A stretch of 64,000 nucleotides of DNA from Oscillospiraceae bacterium (GCA_902774035.1 CACYHA010000016.1:798-64797), one strand, 5' to 3'; shown: positions 41,357 through 48,165, counted from the stretch's first letter. Translations and numbers: made by a program. The notes: a model not told the origin generated them from the letters alone.

Positions 41357-43237
41357 ATGAAAAAGAAAACGACAGCTTTGTTTCTTCTTTTGATCGCACT
41401 GGCCGCGCTTTGCTGCTTTGGCGCCGCGGCGCAGGATTCGATTCCCTACGCTGTGCTTTGCCGGGGCGAAGACGGCTGGGAAACCTGCATCGTGACGGTT
41501 GATTCGATCCCGCCCCAGACGCTGACAGACGGACCCGTGCAGCCGCCGCTCACGGTTTTGAAAGACAATGTGCCGCTCAGCGAAGCGCTCGATTATTCTG
41601 TCAGCTATTTTGACAATGATCTGCCGGGCGAGGCGACGGCGCGCGTCCTTTTCCGCGGCGATTTTTGGGGCTATATCGACATTGCGTTTGAGATCCGGCC
41701 GTTCGAAGTTTCCGTTCCGGAGATCGCGCCGATCCCGGATCAGGTATATTCCGGCGAACCCATTACGCCGGAGCCGGTCGTTTTTGTCGGAACGCAGTGT
41801 CTTACGTGCGGCGAGGCATACGCAGTCTATTACGAAAACAATGTGGACGTTGGTACTGCGCAGGTGCTTGTGGAAGTGTTCGGGGAAGAATCCCAATTTC
41901 TCAGCGCTGAGTTTCAGATCCTGCCCCGCGATGCCGCGACCCTTGCCCACAACGAGCTTTCGGCGCAGCCCTATACCGGTCTCCCTGCGGATCCGGAGCT
42001 TTGCTTCACCTTCGGGGATGTCACGCTCACGCAGGGCGAAGACTATACGCTGGAGTATTTCGACGATGTGGAACCGGGCACAGCGACCGTGACCGCAGCC
42101 TTTTTCGGCAACTATACCGGTACGCTTTCGCTGAACTATCAGATCCTCTTCGGCGAAGACCTTGTCTTGGAAGGCGAGGCCGCCTCTGACGGCGTTTTCC
42201 TTTCCTGGAACGCGCCGTACGGAACGACCTCCTTTCGTCTTTATCGCTTTGAGGAGGAGACCGGCGCCTATGCGCTGCTTTCCCATACGAAGGCCACCTT
42301 CTATCAGGACCGCAAGTGCGCGGAGCTGACGGAGTATCGCTATAAGCTCGTGTGCTACAGCAGAGTGAACGGCGCTCTCGTGCGCAGCCCGATCCGCACG
42401 GTCTGCGTGACGACCGGCCTGCGGCGCCCGAATCTGGCGCTCAAGACCATGAACAAGAAGATCAAGGTCGTCTGGACGGAAAACCCCAATGTGACCGGCT
42501 ATCTGCTGTATCGCTATGACGCCTCCACCGGGAAAGAGCGCAAGATCGCGAAGATCAAGGACCCCTCGATACGCAAGTATCTGGATAAGAACGTGAAAAA
42601 TGGCGTGAGCTACAACTACACCGTGCGCAGTTATAAAAAAGTGGACGGCGTCAATGTGTTCAGCGAATACAGCGAGGGCGTTTGTTCAACCTCGCCGAAG
42701 TCTCTGCTGGCCGGCGTGAAGAAGCAAAAGCTGACCTCCTACCCGATCTATAACGTGCAGGGAAAATCCACCCGTTATCTTTCCAGCGTGGAATTGTCCG
42801 CCGAAGATCTGAAGATCCTCGAAGACTTTGCGCAGACCCATTTCAAACGGAGCTGGACGGACGAACAAAAGCTGAAATACACCCTCGAATGGATCAATGC
42901 CGAAATCTATTACCCCTTTGGCAAGACGTTTGAAAAGATCTGTCAGGTTTCTCACACGGTCGCGATCTTCAAATACAAAAAGGGACAGTGCCTGCAGTAC
43001 AACGGCGCCATGTGCGCCATGATGACCTACCTCGGCTATCCCTCGCGTCTGATCATGGGCTACCGCGGAACCTGGGGCGGCGAGCGCTGGCAGCATTTCT
43101 GGGCGGAATCCGTTCTCAACGAAACCACCTATGTGCTGGAGACCGGCAACTACGGCCGCAGCGGAGACTGGATGTATTTTTTCAAGCCCTACAGCGAAAC
43201 CTTCGGATATATCAAGAATCAGGCAAACGTATCCTGA
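41357..43237 (+). CDS. Secreted multi-domain protein with a C-terminal transglutaminase-like cysteine protease core
   Basis: Signal peptide. Repeated beta domains. ..KKGQCLQYNGAMCAMMTYLGYPSRLIMGY..WQHFWAESV.. (Cys/His of the transglutaminase core). Confidence 0.75.
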   Translation: MKKKTTALFLLLIALAALCCFGAAAQDSIPYAVLCRGEDGWETCIVTVDSIPPQTLTDGPVQPPLTVLKDNVPLSEALDYSVSYFDNDLPGEATARVLFRGDFWGYIDIAFEIRPFEVSVPEIAPIPDQVYSGEPITPEPVVFVGTQCLTCGEAYAVYYENNVDVGTAQVLVEVFGEESQFLSAEFQILPRDAATLAHNELSAQPYTGLPADPELCFTFGDVTLTQGEDYTLEYFDDVEPGTATVTAAFFGNYTGTLSLNYQILFGEDLVLEGEAASDGVFLSWNAPYGTTSFRLYRFEEETGAYALLSHTKATFYQDRKCAELTEYRYKLVCYSRVNGALVRSPIRTVCVTTGLRRPNLALKTMNKKIKVVWTENPNVTGYLLYRYDASTGKERKIAKIKDPSIRKYLDKNVKNGVSYNYTVRSYKKVDGVNVFSEYSEGVCSTSPKSLLAGVKKQKLTSYPIYNVQGKSTRYLSSVELSAEDLKILEDFAQTHFKRSWTDEQKLKYTLEWINAEIYYPFGKTFEKICQVSHTVAIFKYKKGQCLQYNGAMCAMMTYLGYPSRLIMGYRGTWGGERWQHFWAESVLNETTYVLETGNYGRSGDWMYFFKPYSETFGYIKNQANVS

Positions 43238-43264
43238 AACAGCATCCGTTTTGACAAAACAAAA

Positions 43265-43307
43265 ACAGCGACGCTTCTCGGTGAAGAGAGCGGCGCTGTT
43301 TTTGTTT
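43265..43307. terminator. Bidirectional terminator between convergent genes
   Basis: CAGCGACGCT...AGCGGCGCTG stem with T/A runs on both sides. Confidence 0.7.
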
Positions 43308-43314
43308 GAATGGC

Positions 43315-43566
43315 TTATTTTGTGTAAAGCTTTCTGCCGAGCTGCAGCTTCTGCGCTTTTTTGCTGTTCGGGCAGCCGTAGTAGCACACATAGCCCGAGG
43401 GATCCGGCACATCCGGGCGCTCATAGGGCGTGGGATCGGGGAGCGACGGATCCGGAACGGTCGTGCCGTTCACAGGATCTGCGGCCTCGGTGGTGTCGGC
43501 TTCGGCCGGCTTGATGCGCAGCAACTTCAACAGCCAGGACCAGATGAACAAAAAGAACGAACGCAT
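43315..43566 (-). CDS. 83-aa protein: N-terminal hydrophobic helix, Pro/Asp linker, Cys-Tyr-rich basic tail; candidate substrate of the adjacent radical SAM enzyme
   Basis: MRSFFLFIWSWLLKLLRIKPAEADTTEAADPVNGTTVPDPSLPDPTPYERPDVPDPSGYVCYYGCPNSKKAQKLQLGRKLYTK. Strong AAGGAGGT RBS. 47 nt after the rSAM stop. The track ORF is over-extended. Confidence 0.7.
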   Translation of the reverse strand: MRSFFLFIWSWLLKLLRIKPAEADTTEAADPVNGTTVPDPSLPDPTPYERPDVPDPSGYVCYYGCPNSKKAQKLQLGRKLYTK

Positions 43567-43613
43567 AAAAATGACCTCCTTTGAAAAATAGGAACGATTG
43601 ATTGCTTGTAAGA

Positions 43614-45215
43614 TCAGGTTGCGGGAAGCTCCGGAACGATCAGCCTTGCCTGCCGCATCTCCCTGCCGAAATAGGCGCCCATGGTGCCTTCGGCCGGGTT
43701 GACGAGGATGCCGATGTATGCGCCGAAGCGTTTGAACATTTTTGCGTGGATGGCGTCGTCGCCTGTGCTGTATTGCAGCTCGCTTTGCACGGGATGGCTG
43801 TGGATGAACCCGAGGAACTTCATCGGCTGCCGGTTGCTGCATTCGCTGCCGGTCAGCGCGCGGTCGTCGCTGGCGTAATAGTTGCGGTTGATGATGTCCA
43901 GCTCGTGCATCACGGTGCGCAGGATCTTTCCGGTGAAGATCGCATTGTCCTCGGCCCGCAGCGCGCCGTCGCAGGGGATCACATAGCGCACAACGTCGGT
44001 GTTCCCGCAGGAAAAGCCGATCAGCGCCATCTGCTGTTCAAACATGGATTGCGGGTGCTTGCGCCCGAGATGGAAGTATTGCGCGACCGAGCGAAAGGCG
44101 TCCGGCTCCATCAGAACCTCCCGCGCATCGTTCGCGTCGCCGGAGATCTCAAAAAACGAAAGGTGCGCATACTGCCGGAACAGGGCCGATTTATAAAGCT
44201 GCACATCCGGCTGCTCCAGAAAATCGCGATAGCAGAACAGCGGCTCGCCGCGCTCAAAATCGAGCGTGTGCAGGGAATCGCCGCCGCAATCCGCGTGGTG
44301 GACGCAGCTTTTGCATTTCTCCGGCAGGGGACGGTGCCTGAAAAAGGAAAAGCGGTTTTTCCAAACGTCGCTGAAGCTGTCGGTCAGAATGTTGCCCTGG
44401 ATCAGCTCCGGCTGATGGGGCACGTTCGGGCAAACAAAGATGTCGCCGTTGAAGAGGATGGATGCACTGCAGATGCCGGCAAAGCAGTGAAAGCGCCGGT
44501 TGTCAAGCTGCGTTCCGAGAAAGTGCGGGCAGCCCCAGATGATCTTTGTCGGATTCGGGCCGCTGTTGATCCGGTTCGCCAAAGCGGTGAGATAAAGGAT
44601 CTCTTCCCGCGTCAGCAGCAGCTCTGTGTTGTCCAGTGCGCGGCCGATGGGATCCATAAAGCTGACCCGGATGGAATCCAGCCCGATCGGGCGCAGGATA
44701 TCGTATAGCGCCTCGAATTCATAGATGTTGCGTCGGTTGGCGGTGAACGTCACCTGCAGATGGTCAAGAAACCGGGCCGCTTTCAGCTTTTTGAGCGCGG
44801 TCATGATCCTGTCCCAGCACCCCGGAAGGTGCCGCAGGGAATCGTGCGTTTCGCGCAGACCGTCAACGCTGACCGTGACGGTCTTCATTCCGCTGCTTTG
44901 CATACGCCGGATGACCTCATCCGTGATTAGCGAACCGTTGGTGACCATGCCCCACTCAAAGCCCATGGCGGAAGCTTCAGTCATGATCTCGAACAGGTCG
45001 CGCCGCAAAAGCGGCTCGCCGCCGGTGATGTTGAGCATGGTATAAGTGCCGATGTGCTCCCGGATGTCGCGCAGAGCGGCAAGGATCTGCTCCCCGGAAA
45101 GCCTTTCTTCGCTGTGGATGTCGCATCTGCTGCCGCACTGGTCGCAGGCGGCGTTGCATTTTTTTGTGATCTCGATCAGCAGCGTATAGAGCGGGTAGGG
45201 CTCCTGCATTTTCAT
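43614..45215 (-). CDS. Radical SAM / SPASM enzyme fused to a C-terminal JAB (JAMM/MPN+) metallopeptidase domain
   Basis: CNAACDQC (C-x3-C-x2-C). SPASM CKSCVHHADCGG (C-x2-C-x5-C). C-terminal ..EQQMALIGF.. plus FIHSHPVQSELQYSTGD (H-x-H-x8-S-x2-D). Start at 45215 or 45209. Confidence 0.85.
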   Translation of the reverse strand: MKMQEPYPLYTLLIEITKKCNAACDQCGSRCDIHSEERLSGEQILAALRDIREHIGTYTMLNITGGEPLLRRDLFEIMTEASAMGFEWGMVTNGSLITDEVIRRMQSSGMKTVTVSVDGLRETHDSLRHLPGCWDRIMTALKKLKAARFLDHLQVTFTANRRNIYEFEALYDILRPIGLDSIRVSFMDPIGRALDNTELLLTREEILYLTALANRINSGPNPTKIIWGCPHFLGTQLDNRRFHCFAGICSASILFNGDIFVCPNVPHQPELIQGNILTDSFSDVWKNRFSFFRHRPLPEKCKSCVHHADCGGDSLHTLDFERGEPLFCYRDFLEQPDVQLYKSALFRQYAHLSFFEISGDANDAREVLMEPDAFRSVAQYFHLGRKHPQSMFEQQMALIGFSCGNTDVVRYVIPCDGALRAEDNAIFTGKILRTVMHELDIINRNYYASDDRALTGSECSNRQPMKFLGFIHSHPVQSELQYSTGDDAIHAKMFKRFGAYIGILVNPAEGTMGAYFGREMRQARLIVPELPAT

Positions 45216-45225
45216 CACCCTTTTT

Positions 45226-45254
45226 AATGTATCACAGATCGGCCGCGTTGTCAA
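45226..45254 (-). promoter_or_regulatory. Promoter of the rSAM-JAB operon
   Basis: Minus strand reads TTGACA-N17-TACATT. The predicted start site lies only about 4-10 nt before the start codons. Confidence 0.55.
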
Positions 45255-45398
45255 CCGGAAAAGCCGATCGTTCCGCCGAAAACCGCCGCTTTTCGTTTCG
45301 GAAAATCTTGGAAATTTTTGGCTGCAACCTGTAGACAAGCCGTTTTTTCCGTGATAAAATGACAGGGAAGACGGAATGAAAAATGAAGGAGAAATCAT

Positions 45399-47201
45399 AT
45401 GAAGCGCGCGATCTGTCTCTTCCTTGCCTTTTGTTTCCTCCTTTCCCTGTGCGGCTGCGGCGGGCTTTCTCCGGAAGGAACAACAGAAGAACCAACCTTT
45501 GATACAACGGAACCGCTGTCTGAACCGGCCGAGACAACGGCGCCGGAACCGGCTGTCTTTTCGCTGAAAACGCTGCCGGACATCGGCGGCTATGTCTCCG
45601 ATGAAAAAAAGGCGTATTTCTTTGACGACGGCGCCCATGAAACCTTTGCGCCGCGCGACGACTACGGCAAAGTCGTTCCGTATTATGCCAATACGTCGGT
45701 CTACCGTGAAGTCCCCGTTTACACTTATACGAACGAGGACGGTTCCTCCTTTGAAGAAGATGTGGAAAAGCGGTCGCTGATGTACGGCGTCGGCGTTGGA
45801 CTCATGACGCGCGACGGAAGAATCATCTGCGAACCGATCTACGATTTTTTCTATCGCATGGAGGATGCTGACGGAAAGAAGGCCTGGGAGCTTCATACCG
45901 AAAACCCGGAAGAAATGTATTCCTCGAAGCTGACCGTGATCGCCGACGACGGCTCATGGAAGCTGGATTTCCCCGAGGGAAGCTACGTCATGTCGGACGA
46001 CAGCGATATGCGCGGGTATTTCAAGGTCAACGTCTTTGACGATGAGGACAACTCCGGGGTGCAGATTTTCACCTTTGACGGCGTTCCGCTGGCGGACCTT
46101 GTCAAGCTCCGGAAAAAGTACGAAACCGAAAATCAAAAACTCGCGTTCAAAGCCGTGGTGAACGACCGGCTGCTTTTGCAGCTTTACGATGCGCGCAGCG
46201 ACAGCGGGTTTGGGTCGTATGATGAAGTAGAAACGGACGAACTGCTGGACGACGTATATTTTTACACTGACTTTAAGGGGAAGAAGCTTTCCGACCTGGA
46301 GCTTGCGATCCCGTTCAGCGAGATGTGCGGCGACTGCATCGTTGGATTCGATGTCGTGGACGATCTGGTTCAGCTTTTCAAGACGGACGGCACGCCATTG
46401 ACGAAAGCGGTTGAGGGCTATTATCGGTGTGACCCGGAAAACGGGATCGTTTTGATCGACAGGCACGACATCGGCCGCATAGAAGTTTATAACACGGAAG
46501 GAACCCTGCTTCATCAGTATGAGATGGACTGGAATTCTCTGGAGATCGGTCCGAACGGCATGGTCTTTCTGGATAAGGAGCAGAAAAAGGTCTTCCGCGT
46601 TTTGGACGGCAGCGAGATCCTGCTCAACATCCCCGATGTTGCCGTCGTGGAAGGCATCTTTGAATCCGTCGGCCGTTACGGCGGCGGAGAATTATACATT
46701 GCCGTGTCCACCAAAAATAAAAGATGCTACCTGTTCGATCTCGAAGGGAACAGGCTTGCGCGCATCCACCAGCCGGACATCGTAGAAGCCAATTACGGCG
46801 ATGAGCCCAGCTATGAGATGGATCTGTTTGTGACGCAGAACTATGTGATTTCCGTCAATCAGAAAAAAGGCTGGTATCTGTTCGACCGTGCGCTGCAGGA
46901 AGAACGGAAACTGCCGTTTTCGGGGATCAATGTGCACTGGGACGAAGAAATCGAAGAACTCGCCTCGCCGGATTTCTTCGGCGATCTGATGAGCCTTTAC
47001 TTCAGCTATCGGAACGACGATATGGATCAACGTTCGAGAACGGAGCTTTATGACCTCAAAACGGGACGAAGGATCGCGAACGATCTGATCTACTCCGAGC
47101 AAACCGACGAGTTGTTCTGGTTCACAACGAAGCGCACGGCAGTGGCAATGGAAAAAGACGGCAGCGTCTTGCTTCAATTAAACAGCAATTCATTGATCTG
47201 A
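45399..47201 (+). CDS. Lipoprotein, unknown function (possibly WG-repeat-like)
   Basis: MKRAICLFLAFCFLLSLCGC-G lipobox. GGAG RBS. 600 aa. Confidence 0.7.
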   Translation: MKRAICLFLAFCFLLSLCGCGGLSPEGTTEEPTFDTTEPLSEPAETTAPEPAVFSLKTLPDIGGYVSDEKKAYFFDDGAHETFAPRDDYGKVVPYYANTSVYREVPVYTYTNEDGSSFEEDVEKRSLMYGVGVGLMTRDGRIICEPIYDFFYRMEDADGKKAWELHTENPEEMYSSKLTVIADDGSWKLDFPEGSYVMSDDSDMRGYFKVNVFDDEDNSGVQIFTFDGVPLADLVKLRKKYETENQKLAFKAVVNDRLLLQLYDARSDSGFGSYDEVETDELLDDVYFYTDFKGKKLSDLELAIPFSEMCGDCIVGFDVVDDLVQLFKTDGTPLTKAVEGYYRCDPENGIVLIDRHDIGRIEVYNTEGTLLHQYEMDWNSLEIGPNGMVFLDKEQKKVFRVLDGSEILLNIPDVAVVEGIFESVGRYGGGELYIAVSTKNKRCYLFDLEGNRLARIHQPDIVEANYGDEPSYEMDLFVTQNYVISVNQKKGWYLFDRALQEERKLPFSGINVHWDEEIEELASPDFFGDLMSLYFSYRNDDMDQRSRTELYDLKTGRRIANDLIYSEQTDELFWFTTKRTAVAMEKDGSVLLQLNSNSLI

Positions 47202-47214
47202 GGAGGAAACACTT

Positions 47215-48165
47215 ATGACCATCAAACGAACACTTGCAATCCTGCTGGTACTCAGCCTGCTGATGCTCTGCGCCTGCGGCGCGCAAACCGACCCGACGGC
47301 GCCGCCGGAAACGAGCACAACGGAAACCACGACCAGCAACCTGAACGGCAACTTTGCCTTCACGAAGGAAAACTATCCGCGCATGGGCGGCTCCCTTGCA
47401 AACCTGCCGCTCGGTCAGGCTGTGACGGCGACCGTGCTCGGCGTTACCCGCGAGGAGGCCAACGAGCTGATCACCTTTGCCGGCTCAACGACCGACAACT
47501 ACAAAGCGATCGTGGACGGCCGGTTCGACATCCTGCTGGCGTATGAGCCGAGCGAAGAGGCCAAGCAGTACATCAAGGACGCCGGCGAGGAACTGGAAAT
47601 GACGCCGATCGGCGTGGACGCGCTGGTCTTTATCTGCTCAAAGGATAACCCGGTGACTTCTTTGACCATTGACCAGATCAAATCGATCTACAGCGGAAAG
47701 ACGACCGACTGGTCCGCTGTCGGCGGCCCGAAGGGAACGATCGCCGCGTATCAGCGCAACCCGGATTCCGGCAGCCAGACCTTGTTCGACAAGCTGATCA
47801 ATCTCGGCGACGATCTGATGGAGCCGCCGAAGGGGCAGCAGATCGACACCATGATCGGTCTGCTGGAGGCAATCGCAGATTATGACAACAGCAAAAACGC
47901 GCTGGGTTACACGGTGTATTATTACCTGACCAACATGGAGCAGGACAAGCTCGCAACTGCAAAGATCCTTGCCGTGGACGGGATCGACCCTTCCAATAAG
48001 AGCATCGGCGACGGCAGCTATCCGCTGACCAACGATTTCTATGTGGTGATCCGCAAATCCGCAGAAGAAAACAGCCCCGAACGTGTGCTGTACAACTGGA
48101 TCTGCTCCGAACAGGGCGCAGAGCTTGTGCGGCAGGAAAACTATCCCGTGCGCACGACGAAATAA
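47215..48165 (+). CDS. PstS-family (PBP2) substrate-binding lipoprotein, without adjacent permease genes
   Basis: LLMLCAC-G lipobox. ..IKSIYSGKTTDWSAVGG..IAAYQRNPDSGSQ.. is typical of phosphate-binding PBP_like_2 proteins. Confidence 0.65.
   Translation: MTIKRTLAILLVLSLLMLCACGAQTDPTAPPETSTTETTTSNLNGNFAFTKENYPRMGGSLANLPLGQAVTATVLGVTREEANELITFAGSTTDNYKAIVDGRFDILLAYEPSEEAKQYIKDAGEELEMTPIGVDALVFICSKDNPVTSLTIDQIKSIYSGKTTDWSAVGGPKGTIAAYQRNPDSGSQTLFDKLINLGDDLMEPPKGQQIDTMIGLLEAIADYDNSKNALGYTVYYYLTNMEQDKLATAKILAVDGIDPSNKSIGDGSYPLTNDFYVVIRKSAEENSPERVLYNWICSEQGAELVRQENYPVRTTK

Follow-up and report, generated by a model that had tools for sequence, protein, structure and literature searches.

Radical S-adenosylmethionine (SAM)/SPASM maturases are a main source of new peptide chemistry, and the triceptide synthases among them carry out a Tyr-type reaction that gives a three-residue cyclophane. 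Of the JAMM peptidases, QbsD and Mec+ are known to trim or release the C-termini of ubiquitin-like (Ubl) proteins. In the field of RiPPs, peptides that the ribosome makes and that are modified after translation, the C-terminal follower of bottromycin is removed by BotAH/PurAH, and a 2023 review of RiPP proteases does not mention JAMM, JAB, MPN or Mov34 (PMC10885120). Here we analyse a stretch of 64,000 nucleotides (nt) from an Oscillospiraceae bacterium (GCA_902774035.1, CACYHA010000016.1:798-64797), hereafter called the window, in which positions 43,315 to 45,254 hold a radical SAM/SPASM enzyme fused to a C-terminal JAMM (JAB, MPN+) domain and, beside it, the gene for a peptide of 83 amino acids (aa). 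On balance, and by a small measure only, we favour the reading that the two genes form a maturation module for ribosomal peptides, in which a modification made by the radical SAM domain is followed by a cut made by the JAMM domain. The closest curated family is the TIGR04133/TIGR04134 pair of enzyme and lipoprotein from Bacteroidales, in agreement with the preliminary description of this DNA, which had mentioned radical SAM-associated small lipoprotein pairs in gut bacteria.

The enzyme gene lies on the reverse strand (43614–45215, stop codon included). It had been described as encoding 533 aa, a count that holds when the codons are numbered from the first ATG; the true start is probably the second ATG at 45209, which would give a protein of 531 aa (MQEPY...) and is the start on which the relatives and the public gene calls agree. 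A GGTGAT Shine-Dalgarno sequence stands at conserved spacing before this second ATG in related loci. The 83-aa open reading frame (ORF) follows on the same strand (43315–43566, stop codon included), separated from the stop codon of the enzyme gene by 47 nt and preceded by the strong Shine-Dalgarno sequence AAGGAGGT (43574–43581, reverse strand), which ends 7 nt 5' of its ATG. The preliminary description had preferred this ORF to an over-extended frame of 175 aa; NCBI, ENA and Logan records contain gene calls for exactly this 83-aa protein. In public annotation the enzyme is a "radical SAM protein" and the peptides are each a "hypothetical protein".

The peptide opens with an N-terminal helix, hydrophobic or amphipathic, which an acidic spacer rich in Pro and Asp joins to the conserved C-terminal sequence VCYYGCPNSKKAQKLQLGRKLYTK. 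The latter contains the motif Y62-Y63-G64-C65-P66-N67-S68 (43363–43383, reverse strand), which we propose as the site of modification and cleavage, and the basic tail NSKKAQKLQLGRKLYTK (43318–43368, reverse strand), proposed as a follower or recognition segment. A profile search recovered at least 409 related clusters at 90% identity, and every match listed was 55–87 aa long, carried either no name or the label "hypothetical", and had no Pfam domain. The sequence YYGCPNS occurs in all of the 120 top clusters, the tail after Pro is exactly 16 aa long in 102 of these 120, and Leu at positions +11 and +13 of the tail is invariant among them, a check that is less constrained than a search by motif, yet was made on matches selected by the profile. 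Neither Pfam, NCBIfam nor PADLOC assigned the 83-aa peptide or five homologous peptides to a family, returning generic lipoprotein-signal noise only; in particular, the window peptide and the lipoprotein versions from Lachnospiraceae have no NCBIfam match, and hence none to TIGR04134. The N-terminal parts come in more than one form, since peptides of the window's clade start with a helix that is amphipathic or hydrophobic and rich in aromatic residues and continue with an Asp/Glu/Pro spacer, and those of Lachnospiraceae begin with a classical lipoprotein signal peptide carrying a lipobox.

The linkage of enzyme and peptide was followed through 57 loci with relatives of the enzyme, almost all from metagenome-assembled genomes, which were searched in all six frames and among which we distinguish type A (fusion enzymes at least 49% identical) and type B (about 40% identical). 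In at least eight cases, moreover, a peptide cluster and an enzyme cluster agree in the length of their longest contig. In type A, which comes from rumen and gut Clostridia and Lachnospiraceae, 35 of the 36 loci hold between one and five small YGCP-tailed ORFs on the enzyme's strand, a count made with regular expressions into which part of the motif was built from the outset. The ORFs have the ending [VI]-V-[CD]-Y-Y-G-C-P-N-S-[KN]-[KR]-[AVI]-x-K-L-[QN]-L-x-[KR]-[KR]-x-[Y]-[RK], and are placed 3' of the enzyme gene in the window's clade, and 5', 3' or on both sides in Lachnospiraceae. In type B, from low-GC gut Clostridia, a YGCP protein of 141–161 aa lies directly upstream of the enzyme gene and on its strand in 16 of 16 loci. 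Conservation of a small ORF beside homologues of the fusion, which the preliminary description had named as a check, is therefore seen in both types, with the single exception of the type-A locus L028. When every ORF of 90 aa or more from the 57 loci was clustered against all others, nothing was found that recurs in more than three loci, other than the enzyme, the peptides and overlapping-frame artefacts within the enzyme gene. The module is thus self-contained, with no conserved transporter, second protease or immunity gene, and the earlier proposal of a self-contained unit for peptide modification and processing is borne out as far as comparative genomics reaches. Among phages and plasmids, whose sequence collections were searched with tblastn, no relative matched over its full length and the matches were to generic radical SAM proteins; the search also brought up two genuine TIGR04133 loci. 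We consider it very likely that the enzyme acts on the peptide encoded next to it.

The radical SAM core (residues 14–151; 44763–45176, reverse strand) matches PF04055 with 75 bits against a cutoff of 29.5 (E=1.1e-20) and contains, as described earlier, the sequence CNAACDQC (45135–45158, reverse strand), a CX3CX2C motif whose C20, C24 and C27 are unchanged in 52 homologues. The SPASM auxiliary-cluster region (residues 229–328; 44232–44531, reverse strand), for which the strings CFAGICSASILFNGDIFVC and CKSCVHHADCGG had been cited and are both present, passes the PF13186 cutoff (32.6 bits against 21.5, over residues 244–304). Seven of its Cys, at positions 229, 244, 262, 301, 304, 310 and 328, are invariant in the 52 homologues and are spaced as C244-x12-G257-x4-C262, C301-x2-C304-x5-C310 and C328, with C229 upstream. 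We compared this arrangement with the canonical SPASM pattern, CX9-15GX4C...CX2CX5CX3C...C, which has seven Cys and two auxiliary [4Fe-4S] clusters, and found that the place of the fourth Cys of CX2CX5CX3C is taken by Ser314, a residue that is invariant even in relatives lacking the JAB domain; the number of Cys is thus seven here too, but the set of ligands is non-canonical. For the coordination of auxiliary cluster I, anSME and CteB provide precedents, and by likeness to these the cluster may be open or have a ligand other than Cys. An AlphaFold2 model of the whole enzyme (predicted local distance difference test score, pLDDT, 91.4; predicted template modelling score, pTM, 0.89) retrieved SkfB first in Foldseek (6efn, E=1.5e-16), SuiB and CteB next, and then BlsE, anSMEcpe, PqqE, ChlB and EpeE. 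The best NCBIfam match of the radical SAM/SPASM part is TIGR04133 (residues 5–331), with which the preliminary description had suggested a comparison, although at 220.6 bits the enzyme falls short of the curated cutoff of 425 bits and is not accompanied by a TIGR04134 protein; MftC (E=1e-30) and PqqE (E=1e-25) are matched as well. Pfam detects no PqqD-like domain, that is, no RiPP recognition element (RRE), in the enzyme, and an RRE at the N-terminus would have no room, because the cluster motif begins at residue 20. An Oribacterium fusion enzyme (L054, 3986–5998) keeps all cluster Cys and JAMM residues and is interrupted by two inserts of low complexity; one is a repeat of the type DAQI[SA]QI[DE]R, about 75 aa long, and lies where the radical SAM part passes into the SPASM part.

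The C-terminal domain (residues 345–533, the last 190 or so; 43617–44183, reverse strand) is, judging from its modelled fold, its profile and its conserved residues, an MPN+/JAMM domain in which the predicted catalytic residues are intact. The two strings by which it had been recognised, FEQQMALIGF and FIHSHPVQSELQYSTGD, both occur in the window enzyme, and supply the predicted catalytic Glu393 (44037–44039, reverse strand) and H472-S-H474...S483..D486 (43758–43802, reverse strand). E393, which lies in a YEQQ sequence, H472, H474, S483 and D486 are invariant in the 52 homologues, which are 49–100% identical, and are kept in the clade that is about 40% identical and in L054. The hidden Markov models for JAB, which had been named as a check on this assignment, speak the other way for the window protein itself, as it scores 11.8–14.3 bits to Prok-JAB (PF14464) against a cutoff of 25 and 12.4 bits to JAB (PF01398) against 22.5, an outcome that, taken to the letter, had been listed beforehand as a refutation. 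Because the window protein misses these cutoffs, the assignment rests on a fold search, a comparison of profiles with the Protein Data Bank (PDB), the invariant residues and those relatives that do pass in Pfam, namely a SPASM and JAB protein (P0273) with 27.5 bits against 25 and three further proteins (P0305, P0269 and P0276) with 23–28.9 bits against 22.5. A profile of residues 345–533 found JAMM deubiquitinases in 14 of 15 matches to PDB sequences (AMSH-like sst2, AMSH-LP and STAMBP), with the AMSH-type matches aligned exactly on LGfIHSHPxQ...YSxGD with an insertion of one residue. The AlphaFold2 model of these residues alone (pLDDT 89.3) retrieved exclusively MPN proteins among the top 50 Foldseek matches in the PDB; a Caldiarchaeum Rpn11 homologue was best (E=6e-8), Rpn11, CSN5/6, BRCC36, Mov34, a bacterial Ubl-deubiquitinase and also Rpn8 were found, and the target-normalised TM score reached 0.71. 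As a single sequence the domain yielded only chance ankyrin matches in the PDB, so that profile and fold searches were needed to place it.

This JAB lineage is small and divergent, as only 73 proteins among 1.84 billion representatives match the profile of the domain. Its closest relative outside the fusions is a protein of 403 aa (P0264, E=3.7e-20), encoded in an operon (L069, 733–4212) together with a 99-aa Ubl-like protein ending in ...FIVPDGIVA, a ThiF/E1 homologue and a 185-aa protein. This operon probably encodes a system of ubiquitin-like conjugation, or of defence, in bacteria, and the presence of the closest relative in it indicates that the JAB lineage derives from bacterial Ubl conjugation operons. 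The same operon adjoins the gene of a very large multi-AAA protein. We also noted a standalone JAB protein of 201 aa (P0252) on a contig of 1.1 kb, which is indistinguishable from a fragment.

A comparison of the partner proteins across the wider family shows which part of the motif is general. The preliminary description had stressed Cys and Tyr alike, and of these Tyr, within Tyr-Gly, has proved universal, whereas a few peptides have Ala in the place of Cys: both Oribacterium copies in L054, which are lipoproteins, and the second copy of L021 have YYGAPNS, YYGAPMS or YYGAPAS in place of YYGCPNS. The universal element is thus Tyr-Gly rather than Cys/Tyr. In the type-B partners (L033–L048 and L052; for example L034, 3530–3970, immediately 5' of the enzyme gene) an N-domain of about 95 aa is followed by a Pro/Glu linker, the sequence [C]-L-Y-G-C-P-M-A-x-S-V and an acidic tail of about 30 aa; the type-B enzyme scores 269.6 bits to TIGR04133, again below the cutoff of 425. 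A paralogue of the type-B N-domain (42% identity, E=2e-17) without a YGCP tail is encoded 3 kb 3' of the module in L039 (6828–7166), from which it follows that this domain exists independently. Its ending, ...YRSLxELGIxxxSRIxI, resembles the C-terminus of a β-grasp fold. Neither Pfam nor a profile comparison with the PDB identified a ubiquitin-like fold in the type-B N-domain, and hhalign gave it a probability of 5% against ubiquitin/NEDD8/SUMO and of 6% against the Ubl-like protein of L069, with only the ...LxELGIxxxSxIxI segment aligned.

Homologues without a JAB domain extend this pattern. Those of Patescibacteria, of about 360 aa, score 274–337 bits to TIGR04133 (337 in L053), and small proteins adjoin the enzyme in all eight loci examined, the family being represented in L053, L055 and L058–L065. 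Nine of ten such partners begin with a signal peptide, continue with x-Y-G-[VPIAQ]-x-(x)-P motifs, between one and three in number, and close with a transmembrane helix and then a basic tail; the exception is the second L062 protein (78 aa), with YG near its C-terminus. Several of these small genes overlap the start of the enzyme gene. Genuine TIGR04133 genes of Parabacteroides (607.9 bits) and Phocaeicola adjoin TIGR04134 lipoproteins (207 bits), which have the sequence C-E-Y-G-[ST]-P about 10 residues after the lipidated lipobox Cys (L066, 1575–2417; L067, 2517–3005), a candidate target site of the TIGR04133 enzyme. In 12 partners from systems without a JAB domain, we counted 20 YG dipeptides where 4.0 would be expected for proteins of this composition, and the first YG falls at residues 20–42 in 11 of the 12. 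Partners of enzymes with and without a JAB domain thus share Tyr-Gly, which in most cases has a Pro between one and three positions further on, and because JAB-less relatives also adjoin YG proteins, the motif is tied to the radical SAM domain.

In the mechanism that we propose, the radical SAM/SPASM domain would abstract a hydrogen at or next to Tyr-Gly and install a modification there; that its target is the Y-G site is probable, to judge from the conservation of this dipeptide. The likeliest product would be a C–C cross-link from the Tyr ring to the β-carbon of residue i+2, a three-residue cyclophane as in triceptides, and other reactions centred on Tyr or Gly are possible, such as chemistry at the Cα of Gly or epimerisation. 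A thiol-donor reaction is unlikely to be the general one, because Gly may be followed by Cys, Ala, Pro, Val or Ile. We considered a thioether of the sactipeptide or ranthipeptide kind and disfavour it as the universal chemistry, given the change of Cys to Ala in peptides of the fusion enzymes and the Pro, Val, Ile or Ala found in JAB-less systems. The fused JAMM domain, whose ancestry lies with deubiquitinase-type JABs from Ubl/E1/E2 operons of bacteria, would dock the peptide and cut it after Gly64, releasing CPNSKKAQKLQLGRKLYTK. It is the likely docking module because the enzyme has no RRE, and Gly64 is the most economical site for the cut since JAMM relatives trim Ubl proteins after a C-terminal Gly; by this analogy we tentatively suggest, at somewhat less than even confidence, that the cut follows the Gly and that the tail is discarded. 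The tail (CPNSKK...) would serve as a C-terminal follower or recognition sequence, a role consistent with its fixed length, with its near-invariance next to hypervariable N-terminal parts and with the absence of an RRE. The N-terminal product, ending in a modified -YYG, would stay in or go to the membrane, lipid-anchored in Lachnospiraceae, which fits the way in which the motif is tethered to the membrane in Bacteroidales and Patescibacteria.

Several observations weigh against this scheme. The enzyme of L028 is 73% identical to that of the window, yet no YGCP ORF is found within 4 kb on either side of it; its partner may be orphaned or encoded elsewhere. The triceptide-type chemistry is proposed by analogy only, and the nearest characterised NCBIfam families, the heme-type (AhbD/NirJ), MftC and PqqE, have similar weak scores. 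A comparison of type-A with type-B enzyme domains showed no difference in net charge that would match their basic and acidic tails. We know of no JAMM precedent for Cys at P1' and Pro at P2'. Finally, the tail is the strongly conserved part of the peptide and could equally be the functional product. In that case the JAMM domain would free a modified basic peptide of about 20–22 residues, (Y)YGCPNSKKAQKLQLGRKLYTK or CPNSKK..., an explanation that we regard as unlikely although the tail surpasses the N-terminal part by far in conservation, has a fixed length with invariant L+11 and L+13, carries a net charge of about +7 behind an acidic Asp/Glu/Pro spacer, and is encoded in up to five tandem copies per locus. 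The N-terminal helix or lipoprotein signal would then act, together with the acidic spacer, as a neutralising pro-region or an anchor, a role to which we give the same low weight, and anionic pro-pieces are indeed known for cationic antimicrobial peptides. However, no exporter for a peptide freed in the cytoplasm is conserved, the type-B tail is acidic and bears no relation to that of type A beyond YGCP, and what comes after the YG in JAB-less relatives is a transmembrane helix or a folded lipoprotein domain. Because the JAB-less YG motifs precede such other segments, the sequence of the tail is not the conserved functional entity of the family.

We also weighed a route to a peptide-derived cofactor of the PQQ or mycofactocin kind, in which Tyr would be cross-linked or decarboxylated and the JAMM domain would help to excise a small molecule derived from Tyr-Gly. 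PqqA/E/F and MftA/C/E likewise combine a Tyr that never varies with a peptidase of their own and with several copies of the precursor, and both MftC and PqqE were matched in NCBIfam, the latter also by fold, but these scores are no better than those to many other SPASM families and conservation does not extend to any further gene for tailoring, for an oxidase or for a carrier. The partners moreover bear signal peptides, lipoboxes or transmembrane anchors, which indicates a protein-bound, exported product and leaves the cofactor route quite improbable. It is just as improbable, in our estimation, that the JAB domain is not the protease of the peptide at all, and acts solely as a dock replacing the RRE or on some other substrate, for example in the removal of a conjugate. 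The lack of an RRE or PqqD-like domain and the rigid two-domain body suggested by the pTM of 0.89 would agree with a dock, and a good many MPN domains serve as scaffolds without catalysis, as do Rpn8 and CSN6, both of which the fold search retrieved; yet Glu393, His472, His474, Ser483 and Asp486 are invariant in the 52 type-A enzymes and kept in type B and in L054, and the invariance of all five is the predicted signature of an active MPN+ rather than of an MPN- scaffold. A viperin-like antiviral radical SAM gene, suggested by a PADLOC match to pVip (residues 14–123, E=2e-19), was also considered, but the match covers the generic radical SAM core only, while SPASM, JAB and a conserved peptide partner are not features of viperins, housekeeping genes of matching GC content surround the module, and phages and plasmids gave no full-length match. 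A chance pairing of the two ORFs is hard to reconcile with the conservation of the peptide in at least 409 clusters. The comparative data effectively refute both of these last two explanations, and we attach almost no weight to either.

The surroundings of the module are those of an ordinary chromosomal region, with genes for a DivIC-like protein, an S1-domain protein, a secreted transglutaminase-core protein, a lipoprotein, a PBP-like protein and a GH63-like hydrolase, and the GC content of the module (0.55–0.59) is the same as that around it. A secreted protein of 626 aa with a C-terminal transglutaminase core (PF01841, E=2.5e-10; 41357–43237, forward strand) converges on the module, and between the two, common to both, sits an intrinsic terminator hairpin (43257–43307; ΔG -28.5 kcal/mol, z = -7.1, with none of 200 shuffled sequences equally stable). 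An A-run precedes the hairpin and a U-run trails it, so that it should be able to act in both directions, as the preliminary description had held. On the other side, a predicted lipoprotein of 600 aa with the lipobox LSLCGC and no Pfam family (45399–47201, forward strand) diverges from the module and is followed by a PBP_like_2 binding protein (47215–48165).

The enzyme gene had also been credited with a dedicated promoter and a nearly leaderless messenger RNA. A promoter-like TTGACA-N17-TACATT with a TG-extended -10 element is indeed present (45226–45254, reverse strand, pattern score 10/12), and an extended -10 element, TGTGATAnAnT, is kept 5' of the orthologues in four loci (L001, L002, L005 and L008), although the pattern scan taken by itself is at chance level (2 sites found against 1.0 expected). 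The four loci keep a leader of about 50–60 nt between the -10 element and the start codon, which is lost in the window (45195–45290, reverse strand), where the Shine-Dalgarno sequence of the enzyme gene forms the extreme 5' end of the predicted transcript. "Nearly leaderless" therefore describes the locus in the window and not the family.

The fusion, the substrates with a C-terminal YGCP and follower, and the Y-G-x-P link across phyla appear to be undescribed, although the components and the logic are familiar. Our literature searches returned nothing on a fusion of radical SAM with JAB, JAMM or MPN domains, on the YGCP motif or on TIGR04133/TIGR04134, and neither Pfam nor NCBIfam was found to hold a model for the YGCP-tailed peptides. 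A bolder reading, which we hold to be rather doubtful, is that radical SAM modification of Y-G-x-P spans phyla and takes place, so far unrecognised, on membrane-tethered surface proteins (TIGR04134, Patescibacteria and Firmicutes), and that in Firmicutes the JAMM domain processes the substrate after Gly, in the manner of a ubiquitin precursor; as part of this, the substrate of one clade may carry a β-grasp-like domain. If true, it would mean a new Tyr-Gly cross-link or C-terminal structure and the first JAMM peptidase in a RiPP-type maturation. Fused to the maturase, such a peptidase would be a new class in the role of follower removal, and would join C-terminal trimming of the ubiquitin type to radical chemistry. 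The shared Y-G-x-P also gives the orphan TIGR04133/TIGR04134 family of human-gut Bacteroidales its first proposed target site. With one enzyme, one peptide and a seven-residue target, YYGCPNS, the module is a compact test system, and since Clostridia and Lachnospiraceae of rumen and gut abound in these peptides (409 clusters or more), the product may matter for cell-surface biology or competition in such communities.

Compared with known systems, the module shares features with three. Like the RiPP maturases SkfB, CteB, SuiB, anSME and PqqE, which include its top fold matches, the enzyme is encoded beside its putative substrate, with multiple precursors possible, and the three-residue aromatic-x-x target of triceptide synthases would, by analogy, fit Y-G-C/A/V/I/P. 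Unlike these maturases, it has no RRE, is fused to a presumed protease and would recognise its substrate through a C-terminal follower instead of a leader. With the JAMM/MPN+ peptidases that trim Ubl proteins (the Caldiarchaeum Rpn11 homologue, Rpn11, CSN5, AMSH and the bacterial Ubl-deubiquitinases) it has in common the predicted fold and the Glu...HxH...S..D residues, as well as an invariant Gly at the presumed P1 position of the substrate. It differs from them in the fusion to a radical SAM domain, in the spacing HxHx8SxxD, one residue longer than x7, in its sub-threshold Pfam scores and in a type-A substrate that is not a β-grasp protein. The third system, TIGR04133/TIGR04134, has the same seven-Cys auxiliary pattern without the fourth Cys of CX2CX5CX3C, and its partner is membrane-anchored and carries Y-G-x-P, as do the partners of the fusion enzymes, which in Lachnospiraceae are lipoproteins too. 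TIGR04133 enzymes nevertheless lack the JAB domain, and the 220.6 bits of the window enzyme compare with 608 for a genuine member. The motif of the window peptide is C-terminal and followed by a conserved tail, whereas that of TIGR04134 lies N-terminal to a folded lipoprotein of 150–280 aa, so that membrane anchor and Y-G-x-P are all that the two have in common. The module in the window is a distant, JAMM-fused Firmicute branch of the radical SAM-associated lipoprotein system, and would work like a RiPP maturation pair.

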